Source: a virus
Taxonomy: Duplodnaviria; Caudoviricetes
Virus record (IMG/VR): IMGVR_UViG_3300032221_000131
Location: 1-25,559 of that record
Strand: one strand, 5' to 3'
DNA: 25,559 nt
Shown: in pieces, positions 9,382 through 24,769 of the stretch
Position numbering within the stretch: the stretch's first letter is position 1
Layout: each line of letters starts with the position of its first letter
Notes under the pieces: model-generated
What the model was told of the DNA's origin: nothing
Database searches by the model: none
Seen by the model: the letters and a program-made list of their open reading frames with translations, nothing else
Made by a program: the position numbers and the translations under genes

Positions 9382-9439
9382 GATTTGTCAGTCGCGGATG
9401 GCCGTCCCACTGACTCTACGTCTGAAAAGGAGACCCAGC

Positions 9440-9919
9440 ATGATATATTTATACGTCAAAATCCACAATATAACTGGCCTGAAATATCTAGGCAAAACAG
9501 TACAAGATCCTTTCGTTTATAATGGTTCTGGCAAAAGATGGCTGAATCATCTGAAAAAACATGGCGTAGACATTACCACAGAAATCTTATTTCAGACAGA
9601 AGATAAAGACATATTCAAACAAAAAGCCATTTATTATTCTAATCTGTATAACATAGTCGAATCAGATGATTGGGCTAATATCAGACCAGAAGAAGGAGAT
9701 GGTGGCGACACTTCACAGTATATTGATTATGTTAAAGTAGAAGCCATCAAAAAACATCGAAAAGATCTTGGACATTACAAAGATAGACCCAAAAGAGTAC
9801 TATCAGAACAAACTAAGTCCAAGATGTCAAAAACGAGGACTGGGCAAAAAAGAGGACCATACAAACCTTACGTTAGAAAAAAACGTGGTCCATACAAGTC
9901 TAAGAAACCCCTCCCTTAG
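9440..9919 (+). mobile_element. Free-standing GIY-YIG (Seg-like) homing endonuclease with NUMOD3-like tail
   Basis: MIYLYVK...TGLKYLGKT, YNGSGKRW..HLKKHG, WAN, LSEQTKSKMSKTRTG; AAGGAG RBS before ATG 9440; opposite strand to the flanking core genes. Confidence 0.88.
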
Positions 9920-10358
9920 ACATACGAATCTTGATATCATTTATCTGCTCGTCATTAAGTATCTTCAATGCTTCTTTAGTGCGCACAATATTATATTTAT
10001 AATAATCAGAAACTAGGGACTGGAGTTCTTCCTTATGCTTACGTTCCTTCTTTTCTTGATCAGTTTCTTTCTTAGAATACATTTTCTTTTTACGAATTGA
10101 ATTAAACATGTAATCATAATGCATTTGATCTGTTACATTATAATTAATATTCATTTCGTTGGCGTAGAGAATGGTTTCCCTGTAATTCGAAAGAATGTTA
10201 TTAGTTCTCCATTGAGAATAATCATTATCCACCTCAATCGTTTTTTTCCCAGAGGTAATTGAATTTTCATAGCGCCAATCATACCTTGGTTTGTCTTGTT
10301 TAATTTCTGGTTTCGGTTCTTTTCTTTCATGTAGAGTTACGTCTAAAAACTTAGCCAT
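9900..10358 (-). CDS. 62: Clamp loader small subunit (gp62)
   Basis: YANEMN, QMHYDY.FNSIRK, YYKYN..RTKEALKIL..EQI...KGG; lies between gp44 and regA; TGATG overlap. Confidence 0.88.
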   Translation of the reverse strand: MAKFLDVTLHERKEPKPEIKQDKPRYDWRYENSITSGKKTIEVDNDYSQWRTNNILSNYRETILYANEMNINYNVTDQMHYDYMFNSIRKKKMYSKKETDQEKKERKHKEELQSLVSDYYKYNIVRTKEALKILNDEQINDIKIRMSKGGVS

Positions 10359-11296
10359 CAGACGAACTCGCAATTAATCATTACCTCTACTAGAAAGGCC
10401 AAGAAGTTAATTTCTGGATTAGCCGAGAAAGCATTTTGATATTGATATTTTGCTAACTGTAAAACCATTACAGGGGCTGTTTGCTTTGAACAAATATCAG
10501 AAGAAATATCATAGAACTGATTGTAAAGATAATTAACATCCGTATCTAGATTATTCTTAACCCATTTACGTATCTCAGTATAATTAGAATCTTTAAGGAA
10601 AGCGACTAATTCTTTAATAGAAGATTCAGTCATATTCGCAAGAATACCAGAATCAATCTTGCCTGTTGCTGAATAACGCTGAAGCTCGTTAAGAACTCGA
10701 CGCCAATCCGGAAAATGCTTATTGATTACTTCGGCAACAACCTTCTGATCAAACTCAATGTTCTCAGATTGTAGAATAGTAGTTACACGCTTAAAGAACT
10801 GAGTAGCAAGTTTGGCCATTGCCTTCTTGCTAATCTTAAAGTCAATTACCGAACACCTTGAGTGTAGAGGCTCGATAATACGGTTCTTGAAGTTACAAGT
10901 GAGAATAAATCCACAGTTTCTGGAAAATTCTTCCATGAAGTTGCGAAGTGCAGGTTGCGTAGAGTTAGCGTTGAGATAGTCTGCCTCATCTAGGATAACA
11001 TACTTTCTTCCACCAGACAAACTGACGGCTGAGGCAAAATTGAGTATCTCATTTCGGAGAGTGTCGATGTTTCCATTCATAGATCCATTAATTACAATAT
11101 AATCACAACCAAGTTGTTCGAGCATAGCACGTGCTACAGTAGTTTTACCTACACCAGCTGTACCAGATAAAATTAGATTGGGAATATTTTTTTGATCAAC
11201 AAACTGTTGGAATGTTTGTTTTAAATCGCAAGGAAGAATAGTTTCTTCAATAGTTTTTGGGCGATACTTCTCCACCCACAGAAATTCTTCGTTCAT
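10358..11296 (-). CDS. 44: Clamp loader large subunit (gp44)
   Basis: LWVEKYRP, GTAGVGKTT, ILDEAD, QPALR, SRC, FPDWRR. Confidence 0.97.
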   Translation of the reverse strand: MNEEFLWVEKYRPKTIEETILPCDLKQTFQQFVDQKNIPNLILSGTAGVGKTTVARAMLEQLGCDYIVINGSMNGNIDTLRNEILNFASAVSLSGGRKYVILDEADYLNANSTQPALRNFMEEFSRNCGFILTCNFKNRIIEPLHSRCSVIDFKISKKAMAKLATQFFKRVTTILQSENIEFDQKVVAEVINKHFPDWRRVLNELQRYSATGKIDSGILANMTESSIKELVAFLKDSNYTEIRKWVKNNLDTDVNYLYNQFYDISSDICSKQTAPVMVLQLAKYQYQNAFSANPEINFLAFLVEVMINCEFV

Positions 11297-11298
11297 TA

Positions 11299-11604
11299 TT
11301 AAACCTCATTACAAAAAAAGTTTTCAAGAGTTGTAGAAAAAGTAGATCTAGGTCTAGAACCTTTATTATAACTCTTATTCTTTTCATCATAACAAACTAT
11401 ACAATAATCTCTTAAATCTTTTGAAACTATCTGCGATGGATGAATATGTTGTTTATTTGGTTTTGTATAAAAATCGCTGTATAGTTTCCATTCCCCACAA
11501 CAAGTGCACTGTTTCTTCTTAAAAGATTTTCCTCCAAAAACATCTCTAGTTACATTGTTAGAAACATGTCTACTAACTCGTCCAATAGTTTCTACCCTTT
11601 TCAT
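11299..11604 (-). CDS. Small Zn-finger protein (CxCC...CxxC) inserted between gp45 and gp44
   Basis: KQCTCCGEWKLYSDFY...RDYCIVC; GGAGA RBS before ATG 11604. Confidence 0.7.
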   Translation of the reverse strand: MKRVETIGRVSRHVSNNVTRDVFGGKSFKKKQCTCCGEWKLYSDFYTKPNKQHIHPSQIVSKDLRDYCIVCYDEKNKSYNKGSRPRSTFSTTLENFFCNEV

Positions 11605-11619
11605 CAAAATCTCCATAGC

Positions 11620-11646
11620 AAAAAGTGGGGGACCGAAGTCCCCCGT
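11620..11646 (-). terminator. Intrinsic terminator with cUUCGg tetraloop after gp45
   Basis: GGGGGAC-TTCG-GTCCCCC followed by ACTTTTT on the - strand. Confidence 0.9.
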
Positions 11647-11651
11647 CAAGT

Positions 11652-12305
11652 TTAGAAAGTTGAAGTTGATTCAACTGCAATATAGTACTCTACTTCATCA
11701 TGAACAAAATGGGAAATACCTCTTGACGAAATATTTACCTCATAATCACCTGGAATGATTTTAATATTCTCAGCCTTAAAGATCGCCTTAAACGCTTTAT
11801 CTGTTTCTCCAATCTGTATAGAATAAATATCACCTGTCGGATTCTTTGAGTCTGCTGCTTGAAGAAATAAATTCTTTCCATCACCAAGCACTACGATCTC
11901 CGGAAGCGCAAGAATACCTGCTGCCTTTTCGACATCCTTTAGATGATCATTTGTTAACTTAAACGTGACATCAATAGAAGGAAGATTAATTTCCTTTTCC
12001 GGAGCCTTCGTAACAGTATTCTCATCAGCATAAACATAATGAGTTTTACGATTGTCTCCAGAAATATCAACCGACTTTTCACCAAACTTGAATTCTGGAT
12101 CAGTAAAAGTGCTTACGATCGATATAAAACGATCAAGATTATAAATTGCAAAACGTTTTGCAAACTCAGTCTTAACCTTTGCCTTTGCCATTATTGTCTT
12201 AGTTGGCGAAATGGTCTTTAGAACATTTCCTTCCTGAACAACAATAGATGGATTAATCTTCGCAAAGTTCTTTAGTACGTTTACTGTATCTGTATCAATT
12301 TTCAT
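11652..12305 (-). CDS. 45: Sliding clamp (gp45)
   Basis: LKNFAKINPSI, FAIYNL..F, ENIKIIPGDYEV.IS, YYIAVE. Confidence 0.96.
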   Translation of the reverse strand: MKIDTDTVNVLKNFAKINPSIVVQEGNVLKTISPTKTIMAKAKVKTEFAKRFAIYNLDRFISIVSTFTDPEFKFGEKSVDISGDNRKTHYVYADENTVTKAPEKEINLPSIDVTFKLTNDHLKDVEKAAGILALPEIVVLGDGKNLFLQAADSKNPTGDIYSIQIGETDKAFKAIFKAENIKIIPGDYEVNISSRGISHFVHDEVEYYIAVESTSTF

Positions 12306-12320
12306 AATAAATTTCTCCTA

Positions 12321-13199
12321 TCACTTGCCTTTGTTTTGGGACTTCATCATTTTCTTACCTTTAAGAGCTCCTGGATCAGCTGTCGCCGAAGCGCCAATCG
12401 ATGCAAGATCAGCAAGAGAACCACCAAAGATATAAGTTCCGACATGCTGTAATTTCATCCAAGGACAGAACCATGTACGCAAATTAATTTGTTGCGCCTT
12501 TTGACAGAACCAATAATCTTCTGAAAGATAACGCTTAGACACAGGATCAATTTCTGCTTGAAAGAACTGTAGAATTTCTCTAGTGCCGTCAAAATGCTCA
12601 GTACGAACATGATCTGGTTTATAAGAATATTGATCTTTATAAGAATCATAAAACTTAGTCATAGCTTCTTTTGTTACCATCATGAAGCCAGTGCCAATCT
12701 CGAGAACCTCTACTGGCTCAGAAATTGAAATACTTGTTTGACCTCCCTTTGGATTGAACACATAATCACCAACGAACTTTTCAAGAACATTTGGATCTTC
12801 GTCGGCAACACCCTTATCAACTGCACGTTTAATCTTTTCCCAACTAATGCACTTCTTTGGATATGGGCCACCAATGATATCATACTTCTCGATCTCGTTT
12901 GCCTGAAGAGCCATAAGAGCAATAACATCCTGTGGATTAAATCCGATATCAGAGTCAATAAACATTAAATGTTTAGCTTGAGAACGCATGAATTCATCAC
13001 AGCAATAATTTCTTGCACGAGTAATCAAAGACTCGTTAAACAAATAATAAAACTGTAGGGGAATACCATACTGCGTACAAATAGCAGAAAGATCAGCGCA
13101 AGACTTAGCAAACATACCTGCGCACTGTCCGCCATACATTGGCGCAGCTACGAATAGCCCACGCTCTTTTAACTTTTCAATTGGGATTTTAATTTCCAT
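12321..13199 (-). CDS. GT-A fold glycosyltransferase-like protein
   Basis: PMYGG, NESLITRARN, LMFIDSDI (DxD), GPYPKK, GTGFMM, YLSEDYWFC. Confidence 0.75.
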   Translation of the reverse strand: MEIKIPIEKLKERGLFVAAPMYGGQCAGMFAKSCADLSAICTQYGIPLQFYYLFNESLITRARNYCCDEFMRSQAKHLMFIDSDIGFNPQDVIALMALQANEIEKYDIIGGPYPKKCISWEKIKRAVDKGVADEDPNVLEKFVGDYVFNPKGGQTSISISEPVEVLEIGTGFMMVTKEAMTKFYDSYKDQYSYKPDHVRTEHFDGTREILQFFQAEIDPVSKRYLSEDYWFCQKAQQINLRTWFCPWMKLQHVGTYIFGGSLADLASIGASATADPGALKGKKMMKSQNKGK

Positions 13200-13794: not shown

Positions 13795-14349
13795 TCACCC
13801 TTCTCCCATAATTTCTAGAATTCTATCAACAGTTACATCTCTTTCTTTTGTATTATTGTTAGAAAACTTTTCAGTATTAAACATTAAAGTCATATTTGAA
13901 AGAATATTAGCAATCTTTGTTTCTCGACCTTGAAGCCAAGTTTCGTTTTGATTACTTCCACGCTCTTTATATCTTTCTTCTCTTATACTTTTATCCGTTG
14001 AGAGATAAAGAATATATGTATCATAGTTTTCTACACAATGTTCTAAAAATGAAGATGTAAAAAGACGATCGCCTTCAAAAAGAACGATTGAATCTTTATC
14101 TAAACTTGCTAGAAATTTAATTGCTTCTGGTTGAACAGCCATTGACATACGATCTGTTCCAGAAAATACTTCATCCTCGTCATACTTTCCAAGAAGATAA
14201 ACAGAACCACATTGGATATAAGGAACCAACTTAAACGAATCATAACATTTAAGGTAAACATACTTATCTAAATAATTAAGGATTTCTTTCATTAAAGTAG
14301 ACTTACCAGATCCTGGCTCACCACCAATAGCGATAATTTTCATATTCAC
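13795..14349 (-). CDS. P-loop nucleotide kinase associated with base-modification clusters
   Basis: IAIGGEPGSGKST, GTDRMS, FEGDRL, RYKERGS. Confidence 0.8.
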   Translation of the reverse strand: MNMKIIAIGGEPGSGKSTLMKEILNYLDKYVYLKCYDSFKLVPYIQCGSVYLLGKYDEDEVFSGTDRMSMAVQPEAIKFLASLDKDSIVLFEGDRLFTSSFLEHCVENYDTYILYLSTDKSIREERYKERGSNQNETWLQGRETKIANILSNMTLMFNTEKFSNNNTKERDVTVDRILEIMGEG

Positions 14350-15515
14350 TCCATAAAGTTTTCAAGAGTAGTCTCATTATGATAATCGTTTTTAAAACAG
14401 TCCCATTCTTCATCCATCATAATAACTTGACCAGTTTGTAGATAATGATTCTGTTTTTCCTTACAAAGTCCTTTATCCCAAGGATTATCTTCTAACCTTA
14501 GATACTTAGGCAAACATTCACGTCTCATATCCCAAAAATGTTGAAATTTATTTCCCCATTCTTCTTCGGCGTATTTAATACGATTATACATCATATCCAT
14601 ATAGACATTAGGATAACGACGATTAGGACGATGCCAAGATTTATAACAACAAAAAGTAGACTCTAACGTAAAGTAACTAACATCCTCATGATTTATTCTT
14701 TGTTTCGCTTCTTCTAAAAGTATTTTTCCTTCTTCTTTCAACCATTCTATAGTCTCTGGTTTATATCCAGGAAAGTTTTTATTTTGAGATTCTTTAGCGT
14801 CCCACCAATCTAAATCGTCTCTTCCCAAGACTTTACAAAGACCGTTACGATGAGATTTTGAACCTGACATATCTTCTAAAAATAAACTATTACAATCAAT
14901 ATTAATACCCTGAATACGAAGATATTCTAAGTAAGAAAAAGTAGATAGTCGCCCAAAAGATAAAAAATTATTACGAACAAAATCCCATACACTTATAAAA
15001 TTAACATACTTATCATCTGAGTAGCATAAAGAGTAAAATAAATTTTCTTGAGATCCAAACTTTTCAACATTATCTTTATACGATTTTACACAAGCAGGAA
15101 AACCAGTTTTACCAATTTTAAAATACTTGCGATCAGAATCCCAACCAGAACCTGCTTTAAATTTACTATGAACTATATTCCACCAATGATCAAGTTCTTC
15201 TATTTCTAAATCTTTTAAAGATGGAAACTTTTCGTAAATCATGGAAGACGTAACTATATTTTGAGAACATCCATTAATAAATGCAATCCATAATTTATCT
15301 TCTTTGCTCATACGCTTATATTTTGATAGCCAAGGAAAAGCAAAATAAACTCCTCCAGGATGACTTTTATATTTTAAATGAAATTCATAAAAGCGTAAAA
15401 ACACTTCACGACGATATATTTGTTTACGAAAATCTAACCCGACAAATAGATTTTTTACTTCTTTTTGATTATTTAATTCTGACCATCTACCTATTTGCTG
15501 CTCAAAAGAACTCAT
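14346..15515 (-). CDS. aGPT-Pplase / amino-acid:DNA transferase family (HhH-glycosylase-like fold)
   Basis: WDSDRKY, FGRLSTFSYLEYL, SKSHRNGLC, FTLESTFCCYK, RRYPNVY; adjacent to the kinase. Confidence 0.75.
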   Translation of the reverse strand: MSSFEQQIGRWSELNNQKEVKNLFVGLDFRKQIYRREVFLRFYEFHLKYKSHPGGVYFAFPWLSKYKRMSKEDKLWIAFINGCSQNIVTSSMIYEKFPSLKDLEIEELDHWWNIVHSKFKAGSGWDSDRKYFKIGKTGFPACVKSYKDNVEKFGSQENLFYSLCYSDDKYVNFISVWDFVRNNFLSFGRLSTFSYLEYLRIQGINIDCNSLFLEDMSGSKSHRNGLCKVLGRDDLDWWDAKESQNKNFPGYKPETIEWLKEEGKILLEEAKQRINHEDVSYFTLESTFCCYKSWHRPNRRYPNVYMDMMYNRIKYAEEEWGNKFQHFWDMRRECLPKYLRLEDNPWDKGLCKEKQNHYLQTGQVIMMDEEWDCFKNDYHNETTLENFME

Positions 15516-16287
15516 CTAATGATCTCGTTTCATCGTTTTTAATAATAAAATTAGATTCGTTTCCTTTAGCAGGAAAATGTTTCATTTCAACTTCATACTG
15601 TCCAGGAGCGCAAGTTAGATATACTGCATTACGATCCCGGAAAGCTGCTCTAATAAGAGAGTAACCAAAATTCTTATAGAGCCAAGTTGATATACCTTTT
15701 ACATATTCCTCTTTCGTCGTAACTTTAACTCCGAGTATTTCGGAGTATTTTTCGCCATGTAAAGACGTAGGATATGTAACAGAAGTGTCAGTCCACATAA
15801 GAAACTTAGGACGTGAAGTAAATGCATTCTCGAATCCCTTCCATTGTTTTTGAAGTTGAAGGATACTAGAATTTGGAAAGTCCAAAAACTTTATATCACT
15901 ATCATCTTCTTTTTGAAGAGCGTCAATAACGCTCTCATGATTAACAACTGTCGGAACTCCCCAATTTGTTAAACGTAATTGTTCAACGCATTCCGCATCT
16001 AGTTCTCCGAGAGTCTGTTTAGAAATATTCAGCATATTGGTGATTATACAAGTCATAACCCCAACGCCAGCCAAATATTCACGAGACGTATAACTCTTAT
16101 CTGTATCGAGTAACGTCTTCTCAAGAGCCCAAGCGGTGGCCACAACTTTCGCTGCTACTAAAGGCTGATGATCTGCAAGATAATGAATATATGAACGTTT
16201 ATGTAGTTCTACATTATCTTCTGAATGTAATTTAATATGAAAGGGAAGTTTCCACTTCCCCATCAATGTTGCTTCTCCATACATCAA
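15502..16287 (-). CDS. Divergent class I SAM-dependent methyltransferase-like protein
   Basis: EYLAGVG (motif I-like), acidic ELD at the end of strand 2, KFLDFPN (motif IV-like). Confidence 0.45.
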   Translation of the reverse strand: MMYGEATLMGKWKLPFHIKLHSEDNVELHKRSYIHYLADHQPLVAAKVVATAWALEKTLLDTDKSYTSREYLAGVGVMTCIITNMLNISKQTLGELDAECVEQLRLTNWGVPTVVNHESVIDALQKEDDSDIKFLDFPNSSILQLQKQWKGFENAFTSRPKFLMWTDTSVTYPTSLHGEKYSEILGVKVTTKEEYVKGISTWLYKNFGYSLIRAAFRDRNAVYLTCAPGQYEVEMKHFPAKGNESNFIIKNDETRSLDEFF

Positions 16288-17675
16288 AGATAATCCAAAA
16301 GATTTGCTTGTTCTGCTTTACCATATGGATCTAACATTTTATGAGCATGAAGATAATCATACCATTCTTTATCTTCCCACATTCCTGGTGAAACTCCATT
16401 CCATAACGGTTTCCATAAACGATGGTTTTTATTAAGTCTACGTTCATCTACATACTGACGTCTTAAAACTTCGTAATCATAAGATTTAAGTTCTAACATA
16501 TTCTCGCGGAAATAACAAACTACAGAGATTCTTTCACTACTAGGATCGTCAGGATGATTAAGAACAATAGGGGTATTACCATGGATAATTTCATGGTTGT
16601 TAACAAGTAATAAGTCTCCAGGACGCACATTATCAGCAATGCGAAACTCAGGAAAAACAAGATACCCTCCTGTATAATCTCCAGTGCCAAGCACCAATAG
16701 ATTACTTAGTCCAGTTTCTAGATCACCAGCATCTGTATGACAAGCTGTGCGGAAAGATTTATTTACTGTTAATGTTGTAAATACTGTTCCTGGAACTAAA
16801 AATCTTGGATCAAGTTTATCGGCTTCTCTACGTTGATTTGCCCAACGCCATGGTAATAATTCCCTAAATCCTTTATTAAGAGTTTGAAGAAACGGATAAG
16901 CTAATTCGAATAATTTTGGATACTTTTCAGTATAGGCTGTAGGTCTCCCGTAAGGTATCCGAGGATAGCGGTCATACCAACCAGCCACGCCAGAGAAAAC
17001 AGATTTAGCATAATTAGTAGTTGAAGCCCACTTTTCAGCGACCATCTTTGCTTCATTACGAACTTCCTCTGGTGATTTATTTGAAAGACCGTCTACCCAT
17101 TTATCGAACCAACCATGATATTCTGGATAAACTTTTTCTACTTCTGAACGCAACCAAACTGTACCTCGAACTTCGTCTGCTGGTTTATATTTTGGATCTG
17201 CATATTTTGCACGAATACTTTCGACTGAAGTTTCTTCTTTAAGAAACTCACTAAGATCAGCAGAATCGTCTTGTAAAAATTCTAAAATTTCTTGCTGATA
17301 AGGACTAACCCAATCACGACCACCACGTCCTTCAACCGCTAACATATGTCCACGTGGGCCAGCAGCAATACCACGATTCTGACTTTCCGTCGCAGCTTCT
17401 CTTAAACCGCGATAAGCCATATCTTGTTCTTCTTTAGAAAAGTAATTCTTTCGAAACTTAAATGCAATACGTAATTCATCATTACCTTTATCGCATGTTT
17501 CGCAATCTTTTGTACCACAATCTGCTTTCTCTAAAGGATCGCAGAGTGGAGGCATATAACAATCAGTATCTGATTCTATTAGAATATCATAATTACTTTC
17601 GTCGACAAATTGACCAAGAAGATGTTCGCAATTATGTTTTTCTTTAGCTACAATACGTCTTACTTTAGCCATCAC
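16284..17675 (-). CDS. TET/JBP-like 2OG-Fe(II) dioxygenase (5-methylpyrimidine oxidase type)
   Basis: SQNRGIAAG, SGVAGWYDRYPRIPYGR, FTTLTVN, TACHTDAGD (HxD), IHGNT, RISVVCYFRE. Confidence 0.85.
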   Translation of the reverse strand: MMAKVRRIVAKEKHNCEHLLGQFVDESNYDILIESDTDCYMPPLCDPLEKADCGTKDCETCDKGNDELRIAFKFRKNYFSKEEQDMAYRGLREAATESQNRGIAAGPRGHMLAVEGRGGRDWVSPYQQEILEFLQDDSADLSEFLKEETSVESIRAKYADPKYKPADEVRGTVWLRSEVEKVYPEYHGWFDKWVDGLSNKSPEEVRNEAKMVAEKWASTTNYAKSVFSGVAGWYDRYPRIPYGRPTAYTEKYPKLFELAYPFLQTLNKGFRELLPWRWANQRREADKLDPRFLVPGTVFTTLTVNKSFRTACHTDAGDLETGLSNLLVLGTGDYTGGYLVFPEFRIADNVRPGDLLLVNNHEIIHGNTPIVLNHPDDPSSERISVVCYFRENMLELKSYDYEVLRRQYVDERRLNKNHRLWKPLWNGVSPGMWEDKEWYDYLHAHKMLDPYGKAEQANLLDYL

Positions 17676-18049
17676 TCACTCCATAAAATAGATTTAATAT
17701 TTGGCGGTTTCCAACCATCTGGTTTTAATATTTTACCATCTGCTCTACGAACAGGTTTTCCGTCAACTAATTTTGCCATGTTCGATTTATGGACTTCGTC
17801 GAAGACTCTATCCAAGGGAATACCGTAAGATGCAGCAGTCCCACACACAATGTAAATAATATCAGCCAACTCTTTAGCAATGTTTTCCAAATCATTCTTA
17901 CATTCACCTTGTATATATTCTTCATATTCTTCTTTAAGTAATCTAATACGCAGATCTCTTTCGGCTCCATCAGGGAATCCTGGATTATCTCCAACATTCT
18001 GACCAACAGCTGTTTGAAACTCTTTTACATCTTGGAACATATTAGACAT
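17672..18049 (-). CDS. MazG-like all-alpha NTP pyrophosphohydrolase
   Basis: LLKEEYEE, KELADIIY, EVHKSNMAK, DGKILKP..W. Confidence 0.88.
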   Translation of the reverse strand: MSNMFQDVKEFQTAVGQNVGDNPGFPDGAERDLRIRLLKEEYEEYIQGECKNDLENIAKELADIIYIVCGTAASYGIPLDRVFDEVHKSNMAKLVDGKPVRRADGKILKPDGWKPPNIKSILWSE

Positions 18050-18062
18050 TATACTATATCCT

Positions 18063-18641
18063 TCATATTAAGTCAAAGTTTATTATGCAACGATAACCAT
18101 TTCTTGGTTGAGAAGAACAATGATACCTCGCGCCGTCAAAGACAACCATTCTACCTTTTTTGGGAGTTACTCTTTTGTGTTCAACAAGTTCTACGTTCTT
18201 GGAACCAGCAATAGTATTATATTTTGTTTGTTCGTAAAGAATTGTATCTCCATCAGAATCATTTACATAATATACGCATGCAATATGATCTTGAGGAACG
18301 TCTATATGAAGACCATTATGTTCTTTAATGAATCTTTTTTCTAAAGGTAATTGTAGAAAAGCTCTATTAAAATAGAGTTCTTGTATTTCAATTCCTGTTT
18401 TTTCTAACATAGAATTTACGATAGGAACTGAAATAGCTTCATATAATTCAGAAACGATTCCTGTGTCTGGATGTTTAAATAACATATTAAATCCATACGA
18501 AGGAAAAGGCATATCGAAATTAGCGTATGACATATCTTTAATGAATCTCCATTCAGGTCTATTCATTAAAGTATTTTCAACCGCATCTTGTAATTCTGGT
18601 GCGATTACATCATCAATTACTATTGTTGGTTTAAGATCCAT
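18063..18641 (-). CDS. 2OG-Fe(II) oxygenase
   Basis: HID, YYVNDSDGDT, PKKGR.VVFDG..YH.S, RCIINF. Confidence 0.85.
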   Translation of the reverse strand: MDLKPTIVIDDVIAPELQDAVENTLMNRPEWRFIKDMSYANFDMPFPSYGFNMLFKHPDTGIVSELYEAISVPIVNSMLEKTGIEIQELYFNRAFLQLPLEKRFIKEHNGLHIDVPQDHIACVYYVNDSDGDTILYEQTKYNTIAGSKNVELVEHKRVTPKKGRMVVFDGARYHCSSQPRNGYRCIINFDLI

Positions 18642-19200: not shown

Positions 19201-19974
19201 TTAGTTAGGAACAAATACAGCTGTGATTTCTGTTTTTCCATATTCTTTAATCTTTTTATAATTCATACTTTCTAACACTGCAGTAATAGTTTTATTATTA
19301 GTTGAACCATTAGCGTCCGAAACATCTGAGAATATTACAGGTTTACATCTTTCGATAGTTTTTCTAGCACCTTCGAACGCTTTGGCTTCATATCCTTCTA
19401 TGTCTAAATGTATTAGAGATAATTCCTCAATTTCTAAAGAATCTATAGTCATAGTATATATTTCATTTGTACCAGTATCGTCTATCTTATTCATACCAAT
19501 ATTGTTTATTCCCATTATTTTTAATCTAGAAATACCACATTTATCAGAAAGACCTGCATTAAATTTAAATACATTTTGAAATTTACAATTATCCGCCAAA
19601 CATCTGAAATTAAAAGATTCTGGTTCAAAAGTATATACTCTTCTAAAATTTAAACCATATAGAAGAGGATAAAGACCTGCTGCCCCTCCTGCTTGTAAAA
19701 CAGCATTAAAATCTTTTACGTGTTCTCGAATCATTTCATTATAATAATTTTGCCAATCTGCAGCAATTATATTAAAACAATCTAGATCGCTTTTAGGCCA
19801 ATTAAGTTCTACTAATATATCAGAAAATTGTATTCCTCTTACAATTGTTTCTGCATTAGAATAATCTTCTATAGTTTGAATATATTGTTCTTTATTTAGA
19901 CCTATTTCTTTTAATTTCTTTTTATTTTCTTCATAAGATTTTTCGTACATTTTTAGTTTTTCATCATCTAACAT
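19201..19974 (-). CDS. FkbM-family methyltransferase
   Basis: LQAGGAAGLYP, VYTFEP, LIHLDIEGYE..A..GA..TI.RCKPVI; probable ATG at 19974. Confidence 0.85.
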   Translation of the reverse strand: MLDDEKLKMYEKSYEENKKKLKEIGLNKEQYIQTIEDYSNAETIVRGIQFSDILVELNWPKSDLDCFNIIAADWQNYYNEMIREHVKDFNAVLQAGGAAGLYPLLYGLNFRRVYTFEPESFNFRCLADNCKFQNVFKFNAGLSDKCGISRLKIMGINNIGMNKIDDTGTNEIYTMTIDSLEIEELSLIHLDIEGYEAKAFEGARKTIERCKPVIFSDVSDANGSTNNKTITAVLESMNYKKIKEYGKTEITAVFVPN

Positions 19975-19975
19975 T

Positions 19976-20122
19976 TTAATTATCCCAATCAAGAAACCAT
20001 TTAACTAAAGTATAAACTACTATCACGTAAATAGCAAGCCATATTAATCCAGTTAAGAACTCTACCTGCTCGTTGAAATGTTTGTTCAACATTTCAAAAT
20101 CGAAATATTTGGTATACGTCAT
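19976..20122 (-). CDS. 48-aa small membrane protein
   Basis: ATGA overlap with the def stop; MTYTKYFDFEMLNKHFNEQVEFLTGLIWLAIYVIVVYTLVKWFLDWDN. Confidence 0.6.
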   Translation of the reverse strand: MTYTKYFDFEMLNKHFNEQVEFLTGLIWLAIYVIVVYTLVKWFLDWDN

Positions 20123-24237: not shown

Positions 24238-24769
24238 TTTCTTTTTCCTTCTCAGAAAACTTTTCAACGCCAACAAGTTTACTTGATTTTTTACTTTTAG
24301 TCAACTTATCTTCAAAAGAACGAACAATATCAGCCGAATAGTCGTTAGATTTCAGCTGCATAGAATGATTCGAATCTTCGAAGATTTCAGAAAATATAAA
24401 ACTATTTTCGAAATTCTTATGCTTTATATAGGTTTGTTTCTTTTCTTTTTGTATTCTACGGAGGAATGCATTCCAAGCAATCTGAGTAAAATACGCGAAA
24501 GGATTATTAGTCCTATCCGGATCAAAGTTATCTACAGCCGAGATACAATCCATTATTCCATCAGAGATCATATCTTGTTTATACGTATATCCGGAGAAGT
24601 TTGGTTTCTTAGCAAGATTATTACAAATTAAAAGAATAGACTCTCCAATATATTTTGGAACAATTGGTTTCTCTACTTCTTTTTTCTCTGCTTCTCTTAA
24701 TTCATTTTTATAATGAATCATTGCACCATACAGAGTTTTATTGTTTATATAATTCTTCGCTTTTGACAT
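24227..24769 (-). CDS. 55: Late-transcription sigma factor (gp55)
   Basis: NYINNK, YIGE, PNFSGYTY..DMISDG, NFDP, NPFAYFTQIAWNAFLRRIQKEKKQ. Confidence 0.96.
   Translation of the reverse strand: MSKAKNYINNKTLYGAMIHYKNELREAEKKEVEKPIVPKYIGESILLICNNLAKKPNFSGYTYKQDMISDGIMDCISAVDNFDPDRTNNPFAYFTQIAWNAFLRRIQKEKKQTYIKHKNFENSFIFSEIFEDSNHSMQLKSNDYSADIVRSFEDKLTKSKKSSKLVGVEKFSEKEKENEE

Follow-up and report, generated by a model that had tools for sequence, protein, structure and literature searches.

The whole of a 25,559-base phage record (IMGVR_UViG_3300032221_000131), hereafter the window, was analysed. On its minus strand lies a tightly packed run of genes for a MazG-like protein, a TET/JBP-family dioxygenase, a methyltransferase-like (MTase-like) protein, an AADT-family protein and a P-loop kinase. 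The genes of the dioxygenase, the MTase-like protein and AADT are consecutive and overlapping, and their products end in QANLLDYL, TRSLDEFF and ETTLENFME, respectively. Comparison with relatives suggests that these tails are docking motifs for the T4-type sliding clamp gp45, which would bring the enzymes of a predicted thymine-hypermodification pathway to freshly replicated DNA, probably singly rather than as a trio; we put the probability of this reading at about 0.7. The first-pass annotation of the window had given the three C-termini exactly (its span, 14346..16320, takes in just the last 12 dioxygenase codons) and had proposed that they act as clamp tags. That part is supported at the level of sequence, as the tails are gp43-like, conserved, predicted to be flexible and absent from ParB-linked homologues outside T4-type contexts; the accompanying picture of a line of three enzymes working simultaneously at the three sites of one clamp is not. 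Papers are cited below by accession.

Polymerase-type tails on modification enzymes

Tails counted as strict matches if they contained [LI][DE]x[FL][FYLM] no more than four residues from the C-terminus, a pattern that had been fixed from the tails of enzyme homologues before any tail of the polymerase gp43 was inspected. The background rate of this pattern, estimated from internal pseudo-termini, is 0.2% (85 of 43,057). In the window it ends three of 36 genes (the MTase-like protein, AADT and a 116-residue open reading frame, ORF), compared with one match at 691 internal positions. The dioxygenase tail aligns column for column with SLExFF tails of its family.

To relate the tails to genomic surroundings, 183 loci were sorted by context: 114 carried T4 markers, 43 carried ParB and 26 were unassigned, all of them except the window being no longer than about 21 kb. 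Not one of the 183 holds both ParB and T4 markers. Counting representatives at 90% identity and setting the unassigned loci aside, we found the strict tail on 44 of 54 dioxygenases, 8 of 17 MTase-like proteins, 16 of 35 AADTs and all nine TAGT glycosyltransferases in T4 contexts, as against 0/18, 0/5, 0/10 and 0/5, respectively, in ParB contexts. The tail, whose conservation the first-pass annotation had named as a check of its proposal, is common in T4-type loci and absent from ParB-linked ones. At the unassigned loci the strict tail was present on two of three dioxygenases, one of five MTases and one of nine AADTs. Other T4-context neighbours had no strict motif, namely the kinase (0/42), MazG (0/33), GT (0/33), PDF (0/41), DUF3310 (0/28), PDG (0/26), PLP enzyme (0/4) and INO1 (0/2); of the GNAT groups, one showed it in one of two members and another in none of eight. 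The strict tail was also absent from the cultured mycobacteriophages Hydro and Montesquieu, which are without a gp45 match, and from the ParB-linked HTVC112P, in which no gp45 search was made. A wider pattern takes in 50 of 54 dioxygenases, 15 of 17 MTases and 27 of 35 AADTs in T4 contexts. It was set post hoc, after the tails had been seen, and it also matches conserved core ends (2/5 ParB MTases and 10/42 T4-context kinases); for these reasons, it is the strict counts that carry the argument.

Folded models of the MTase-like protein and AADT have pLDDT below 50 at residues 255–261 and 384–389, respectively. Tail-less homologues stop at the core end, and the MTase tail is appended beyond the shared core end. 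The two tails are therefore predicted to be flexible add-ons outside the folded domain. Equal linkers of seven residues can be drawn for the dioxygenase, the MTase and gp43, but they depend on the chosen anchors and were not used as evidence.

The polymerases of relatives end in the same way, with gp43 C-termini STLESFFT, SNLEDFFND, ATLEDFFS, RATLEDFFG, IASLENFF, ATLEDFFG and ATLDSFFA, all close to the enzyme consensus. G015 is a complete relative whose cassette has the same four genes, and in it the strict motif ends four of 193 ORFs: gp43, the dioxygenase, the MTase-like protein and AADT. Across six records it ends 15 of 1,088 ORFs, where about two would be expected, and these comprise five gp43 proteins, nine cassette enzymes and one unrelated protein. 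The presumed clamp motif also has a second form, G[VIL]ExF ahead of acidic residues, which was found in 27 of 30 distinct gp55 C-termini, and many AADT tails use this gp55-like form (GIExF[MT]) rather than the gp43 form. Chance or composition was rejected as the origin of the tails in view of the 0.2% background, the window and genome counts, and the codon variation described below.

In more distant phages the polymerase and the modifiers appear mostly to switch together to other peptides, KLW or VNLxAxM, with one clear mismatch (see below). Ends of the form [KR][KR]LW occur in five of 222 ORFs of Vibrio phage K469, namely gp43, the HMUD2 kinase, ADDT, HMUDK_hel and a 107-residue ORF. In Salmonella phage CRW-SP2, gp43 ends VNLLAMMG, ADDT VNLMALMK and the kinase VSILGLMK; in Caulobacter phage Cr30, gp43 ends ADLSSLFD and a TAGT-like protein SDLSKLF. 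The LxxFF form is retained by gp43 of phages DLP_6, C48C1 (where the Dam methylase has it as well) and Melnitz, with dioxygenase tails LGDFF, LEEFF and LNDFL.

Side observations from the same phages concern further possible clients. The K469 107-residue ORF (L241:1205-1525, phrog_4789) ends KTRKLW like gp43 and is a candidate clamp client. In VPALA (L151, 2349-7980), STAKRLW is the shared end of ADDT, HMUDK_hel and an annotated DNA methyltransferase, and the polymerase frame matches it partially with the end TNAKR.

If the tails do dock, the site would be the hydrophobic pocket of gp45 that is used by gp43, ligase, gp33 and gp55 (PMC6212786, PMC7892883, PMC2988020). The window gp45 profile matches the RB69 and T4 gp45 structures 1b77/1b8h, 1czd and 6drt at E ~1e-36, and gp45, gp44 and gp62 lie about 2–4.5 kb downstream of the three tagged genes. 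Docking on clamps at or behind the fork, in exchange with gp43 and gp55, would let progeny DNA be modified before restriction or packaging. Judging from published homologues, the dioxygenase would convert T to 5-hydroxymethyluracil (5hmU), the kinase would convert 5hmU to its phosphorylated form 5-PmU, and AADT would then transfer an amino acid, in line with the reported order of thymine, 5hmU, phosphorylation and amino-acid transfer (PMC8989533). The last step would probably be a methylation, of unspecified target, by the MTase-like protein. The kinase, being untagged, would rely on diffusion or on association with AADT.

Alternative explanations and points against docking

It is rather unlikely that the tails bind another partner, such as gp32, the clamp loader, the packaging motor, each other or the host beta-clamp, and that their gp43 likeness reflects a generic amphipathic end. 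Host beta-clamp motifs are likewise short Leu-Phe peptides, gp32 has an acidic LEFF-like end, the baseplate protein gp26 ends in SLNDFF, and in two phages, phiA8-29 and G011, the modifier tails differ from those of their own gp43. A partner other than gp45 would not readily account for a motif that tracks gp43 when gp43 switches to KLW or VNLxAxM, for genome-wide matches almost confined to gp43 and modifiers, or for tail-less ParB-linked cassettes with no T4-type replication genes nearby.

We consider it improbable that three enzymes sit simultaneously on one gp45 trimer as a processive oxidation–transfer–methylation line behind the fork, full occupancy being something that the first-pass annotation had thought possible in principle. 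Three tagged enzymes are indeed encoded by overlapping genes of one operon, three ligase peptides can occupy all three gp45 sites (PMC6212786), and a published model places gp33 and gp55 on two protomers of the same clamp (PMC7892883). However, oxidation and transfer are separated by a kinase step (PMC8989533), and the kinase has the strict tail in none of 42 T4-context homologues. Full-length T4 ligase binds at only one per gp45 trimer (PMC6212786), and in an RB69 peptide crystal one of three clamp sites was filled (PMC2988020). Moreover, the linkers are short for enzymes of 30–54 kDa (about 4–7 residues from the chosen core anchors), and the number of tagged modifiers varies among relatives, some having, for example, the dioxygenase and TAGT only.

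Very improbable, and largely refuted, is the idea that the tails have no protein function and arose merely from overlapping genes, Shine-Dalgarno sites and an AT-rich choice of codons: signals do overlap the tails, but synonymous codons interchange freely at the core Leu and Phe-Phe, the equivalent gene junctions of ParB-linked cassettes are tail-less, and other overlapped operon genes are motif-less, with a background rate of 0.2%. The window AADT gene closes with ATG GAG TGA, and two bases past this stop comes the kinase ATG. The ATG GAG that specifies the final M-E of the tail doubles as a Shine-Dalgarno-like site immediately ahead of the kinase gene. The AADT start is located within the codons of the MTase tail, the dioxygenase/MTase-like junction reads TGATG, and the dioxygenase tail codons hold GGA just upstream of the overlapping MTase-like start. 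A Shine-Dalgarno-like 4-mer is present in 23 of 54 T4-context dioxygenase ends. These signals likely explain the frequent FME ending of AADTs and perhaps the divergence of the window dioxygenase tail. They do not explain the core motif: the dioxygenase motif Leu uses five synonymous codons (14, 11, 10, 5 and 4 times) and both motif Phe positions mix TTC and TTT. Because these residues vary at synonymous sites, selection appears to act on the peptide.

A number of observations weigh against docking of the tails on gp45. In the window, the dioxygenase end LLDYL fails the strict pattern, and the 25,559-base record holds neither gp43 nor gp33; a metagenome scan for near relatives that might carry the gp43 of this phage yielded a single distant locus. 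The comparison with gp43 and gp33 C-termini was accordingly made in relatives, where gp43 shared [ST]L[ED]xFF with the enzymes and gp33 did not. The gp33 proteins of three relatives (G001 L112:12617-12832, G003 and G015) end in RGARLPI or RAKLPV, with no motif. In T4 the gp33 clamp motif is essential for activation (PMC7892883), and gp33 had been one of the model tails from which the first-pass annotation argued, a role it loses in this lineage. In five relatives the baseplate hub gp26 (G001 L112:17058-17765 and homologues) has a look-alike tail, SLNDFFTWR, TLNDFFTLG or SLTDFFTLR, with no obvious clamp role. Seven AADT tails fit the strict pattern with M as its final residue; all of them encode it by ATG, and where E follows, ATG GAG lies just ahead of the kinase start.

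Conservation and co-variation are also imperfect. Even with the wider pattern, 4/54 dioxygenases, 2/17 MTases and 8/35 AADTs in T4 contexts are motif-less. ParB-type dioxygenases form one clade, as do ParB-type MTases, and the T4/ParB contrasts of these two families therefore amount to single events; Fisher tests on the counts ignore relatedness and overstate independence. The tail-less ParB-type AADTs form two separate clades, one of them nested among tailed T4-type AADTs (SH-aLRT 95–99), in what is a quick tree with long-branch rows; trees were computed minus the last 15 residues. In Aeromonas phage phiA8-29 the modifiers end KKLW or KRLW and gp43 ends VNVLKFFK, a mismatch that implies either a recent exchange or one clamp accepting two motifs. 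At this locus (L209, 3221-10160) the polymerase end is Salmonella-phage-like and the three adjacent modifiers are K469-like. In G011 gp43 ends ASLENFF and the enzymes have drifted to VLDFL, ILDFV and GLREFL. GATLF is the end of the Cr30 dioxygenase, and no tail is present on the Melnitz C5-methyltransferase, a cytosine enzyme, or on the VPALA kinase. Finally, in T4 the level of alpha-glucosylation (alpha/beta ratio) was set mostly by expression and not by clamp binding (PMC13216743), and the preprint of that paper reported no binding of the alpha-glucosyltransferase to gp45.

The cassette and its surroundings

The enzyme labels given by the first-pass annotation were borne out. The dioxygenase matches Pfam Tet_JBP at E 5.8e-23 (81.4 bits, cut-off 34.9), its H313-x-D315, H365 and R382 are invariant across 30 homologues, and no C5-cytosine methyltransferase was found by Pfam among the scanned window genes. 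It is likely a thymine oxidase, converting T to 5hmU in DNA. It shares 40% identity across 188 residues with the ParB-linked homologue L022, which on visual comparison is nearly the same as 5mYOX177, a T-dioxygenase that has been assayed. This relationship and its AADT and kinase neighbours make the window enzyme a tentative candidate for a ParB-less member of clade C1. A sequence search of the PDB gave no significant match for the dioxygenase or AADT.

The MTase-like protein had no Pfam, PHROG or cultured-phage match. Its AF2 model has a mean pLDDT of 92, the top Foldseek matches are the S-adenosylmethionine (SAM) methyltransferases Trm1, KijD1 and TcaB9 (E ~1e-8), and the invariant residues E70, G74 and G76 correspond to the glycine-rich motif I of the Rossmann-like SAM-binding fold. 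According to the model the protein has a class I SAM-dependent methyltransferase fold; methyl transfer is a prediction.

AADT matches phrog_3271 at E 2.5e-67, and the same PHROG holds a Pfam-ADDT protein. Against Pfam ADDT (PF18724) the window protein is not above cut-off, its sole Pfam match being a sub-cut-off one to aGPT-Pplase3, although homologues of it do pass Pfam ADDT. The best PDB fold match is the glycinyltransferase PaMx11 gp46 (8z2m; probability 1.00, TM 0.49/0.63, E 7.8e-3), in keeping with the PUGT/gp46 helical fold of the AADT family (aGPT-Pplase clade 2). Residues E285 and C289 are invariant, and C289 may be the counterpart of gp46 Cys247.

Table 1. Coordinates of the cassette, its tails and the clamp genes in the window
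Feature	Position	Strand	Basis or remark
TET/JBP-family dioxygenase (463 aa)	16284..17675	-	Pfam Tet_JBP
Dioxygenase tail QANLLDYL (protein end EQANLLDYL)	16287..16310	-	Divergent copy of family consensus [ST]L[ED]xFF
Class I SAM methyltransferase-fold protein (260-261 aa)	15502..16287	-	AF2 model and Foldseek
Methyltransferase tail TRSLDEFF	15505..15528	-	Fits strict pattern
AADT-family protein (389 aa; formerly aGPT-Pplase)	14346..15515	-	phrog_3271
AADT tail ETTLENFME	14349..14375	-	Fits strict pattern
P-loop kinase, predicted 5-hmU DNA kinase, tail-less	13795..14349	-	Ploopntkinase3, E 4e-13
gp45 sliding clamp, inferred binding partner	11652..12305	-	phrog_223, E 5.9e-68
Clamp loader gp44	10358-11296	-	Pfam Gp44_lid
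Clamp loader gp62	9900-10373	-	Pfam Phage_clamp_A
Predicted sigma70-like promoter heading the MazG-to-kinase run	18048..18076	-	11/12 consensus matches; consensus scan only
gp55 motif GVEKF, then acidic end	24257..24271	-	Second form of presumed clamp motif

According to Pfam and PHROG, the T4-type genes of the window are gp55, gp47, gp46, gp45, gp44, gp62 and regA. Between gp45 and gp44 lies the 116-residue ORF mentioned above (11299-11649, minus strand), a Cys-rich protein ending STTLENFFCNEV, with weak endonuclease VII/HNH PHROG matches; some of its homologues end xFC[EN]EV, and in G015 a 186-residue ORF at the same position ends ATLKDFLGV. Its terminal match suggests that it is possibly another clamp client. 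A strong UUCG-loop terminator is predicted directly 3' of gp45 (11627-11644, minus strand), and a conserved glycosyltransferase-like gene with a basic, motif-free C-terminus adjoins gp45 (12321-13199, minus strand). An FkbM-family methyltransferase gene is found at 19201-19992 (minus strand), and an antisense ORF, endonuclease-like by eye, lies between gp62 and regA (9398-9919, plus strand).

Otherwise syntenic phages (loci L002-L105) differ in what they carry between dioxygenase and kinase, a swap site occupied by the MTase-like gene, a PLP enzyme, TAGT, a GATase with an amidoligase and GNAT, an N6/N4 methylase, or INO1 with a phosphatase-like gene. This suggests many different final bases. 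Pairs of tail-less MTase-like protein and AADT were also seen on the non-T4 contigs L175/L176 (G013), L189/L190 and L200/L201. The G013 pair sits with two kinase-like genes and a thymidylate-synthase-like ORF, by eye with no dioxygenase nearby, a gene set that suggests a pre-replicative 5hmU route. In another relative, the N-terminus of an ORF (G001 L110:12453-13214) looks by eye somewhat like particulate methane monooxygenase subunit C, hinting at methanotroph hosts for some relatives.

Precedents, the ParB-linked cassettes and significance

The closest known element is the T4-type sliding-clamp-binding motif (SCBM), which is likewise a short peptide of hydrophobic and acidic residues that closes the protein after a flexible linker and has the form of a gp43 tail; the gp45/gp44/gp62 set is moreover encoded near the window tails. 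The window tails differ in standing on base-modification enzymes and in their lineage form, [ST]L[ED]xFF or G[IVL]ExF instead of T4 LDFL[FY]; in addition, the gp33 of this lineage is motif-less.

Clamp association of a single modifier has been described before. T4 alpha-glucosyltransferase was reportedly found by Sommer et al. in 2004 to bind or co-purify with gp45. A 2026 paper confirmed the interaction in a pull-down (PMC13216743). Like the window enzymes, this is a post-replicative hypermodification enzyme, gp45-associated and proposed to act during replication. Unlike them, it is one enzyme, acting on pre-incorporated hydroxymethylcytosine, and the consulted part of PMC13216743 names no binding motif for it; in the present phages, polymerase-type tails can be recognised on no fewer than four unrelated folds. 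In eukaryotes, DNMT1 is recruited to new DNA through a PCNA-binding peptide (PMC9690074), again a DNA-modifying enzyme on a clamp, although in maintenance methylation and with one enzyme as opposed to a multi-step phage pathway. In the light of both cases the statement of the first-pass annotation that no description of clamp-coupled hypermodification was known to it is not supported. In gene content and predicted chemistry the cassette resembles the clusters of TET_JBP, 5-HMUDK and AADT (PMC8989533; AADT structure, PMC11472151), from which it differs by its uncatalogued SAM-fold partner.

For polymerase-type tails on hypermodification enzymes, a search of mainly open-access literature found no description. 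PMC8256090 and bioRxiv 2023.12.21.572611 use 'clamp' solely for neighbouring genes or not at all, the text of PMC8989533 contains neither 'clamp' nor 'replisome', and both 'gp45' and 'clamp' are absent from 12 supplements of PMC13229309.

Phage thymine dioxygenases linked to AADT and a kinase have been shown to depend on ParB: 5mYOX177 gave 0% 5hmU alone (4/4) and 6.8–9.4% with its ParB (4/4), and some ParB-less clade C1 dioxygenases were inactive in E. coli for unexplained reasons (PMC13229309). None of 23 dioxygenase constructs in the examined part of the datasets of that paper ends in the strict motif. The window cassette shares the dioxygenase–AADT–P-loop kinase logic of the ParB-dependent clade C1 systems, but its dioxygenase is about 130 residues longer and has a clamp-type tail, and Pfam revealed no adjacent ParB among the scanned window genes. 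Similarly, there was no ParB_N match in three near-complete T4-type relatives (G001, G002 and G015). Because ParB and the tail are mutually exclusive among loci, gp45 may have taken the place of ParB. It is possible, but we regard it as tentative, that gp45 replaced ParB as the obligatory activator of thymine hypermodification in T4-like phages, and that the cassette accordingly exists in two mutually exclusive forms, one ParB-activated and tail-less, the other gp45-tethered and tailed. Alternatively, the larger insertion of the window dioxygenase might make it independent of any activator; in published work, enzymes became independent of ParB when insertions were exchanged (PMC13229309). If gp45 did replace ParB, the apparent inactivity of ParB-less clade C1 dioxygenases in E. 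coli would be due to a lack of loaded gp45.

Docking of the tails on gp45 would have practical consequences as well. C-terminal His tags, used in several studies of such enzymes, could mask the clamp motif. In relatives the motif picks gp43 and DNA modifiers almost exclusively, including the uncatalogued SAM-fold protein, and it may thus serve as a mining rule: a C-terminal tail matching that of the polymerase would be a genome-wide tag for new DNA-acting enzymes. A clamp tag would also be a simple answer to how post-replicative hypermodification enzymes quickly reach phage DNA and spare host DNA, since only phage DNA carries gp45.

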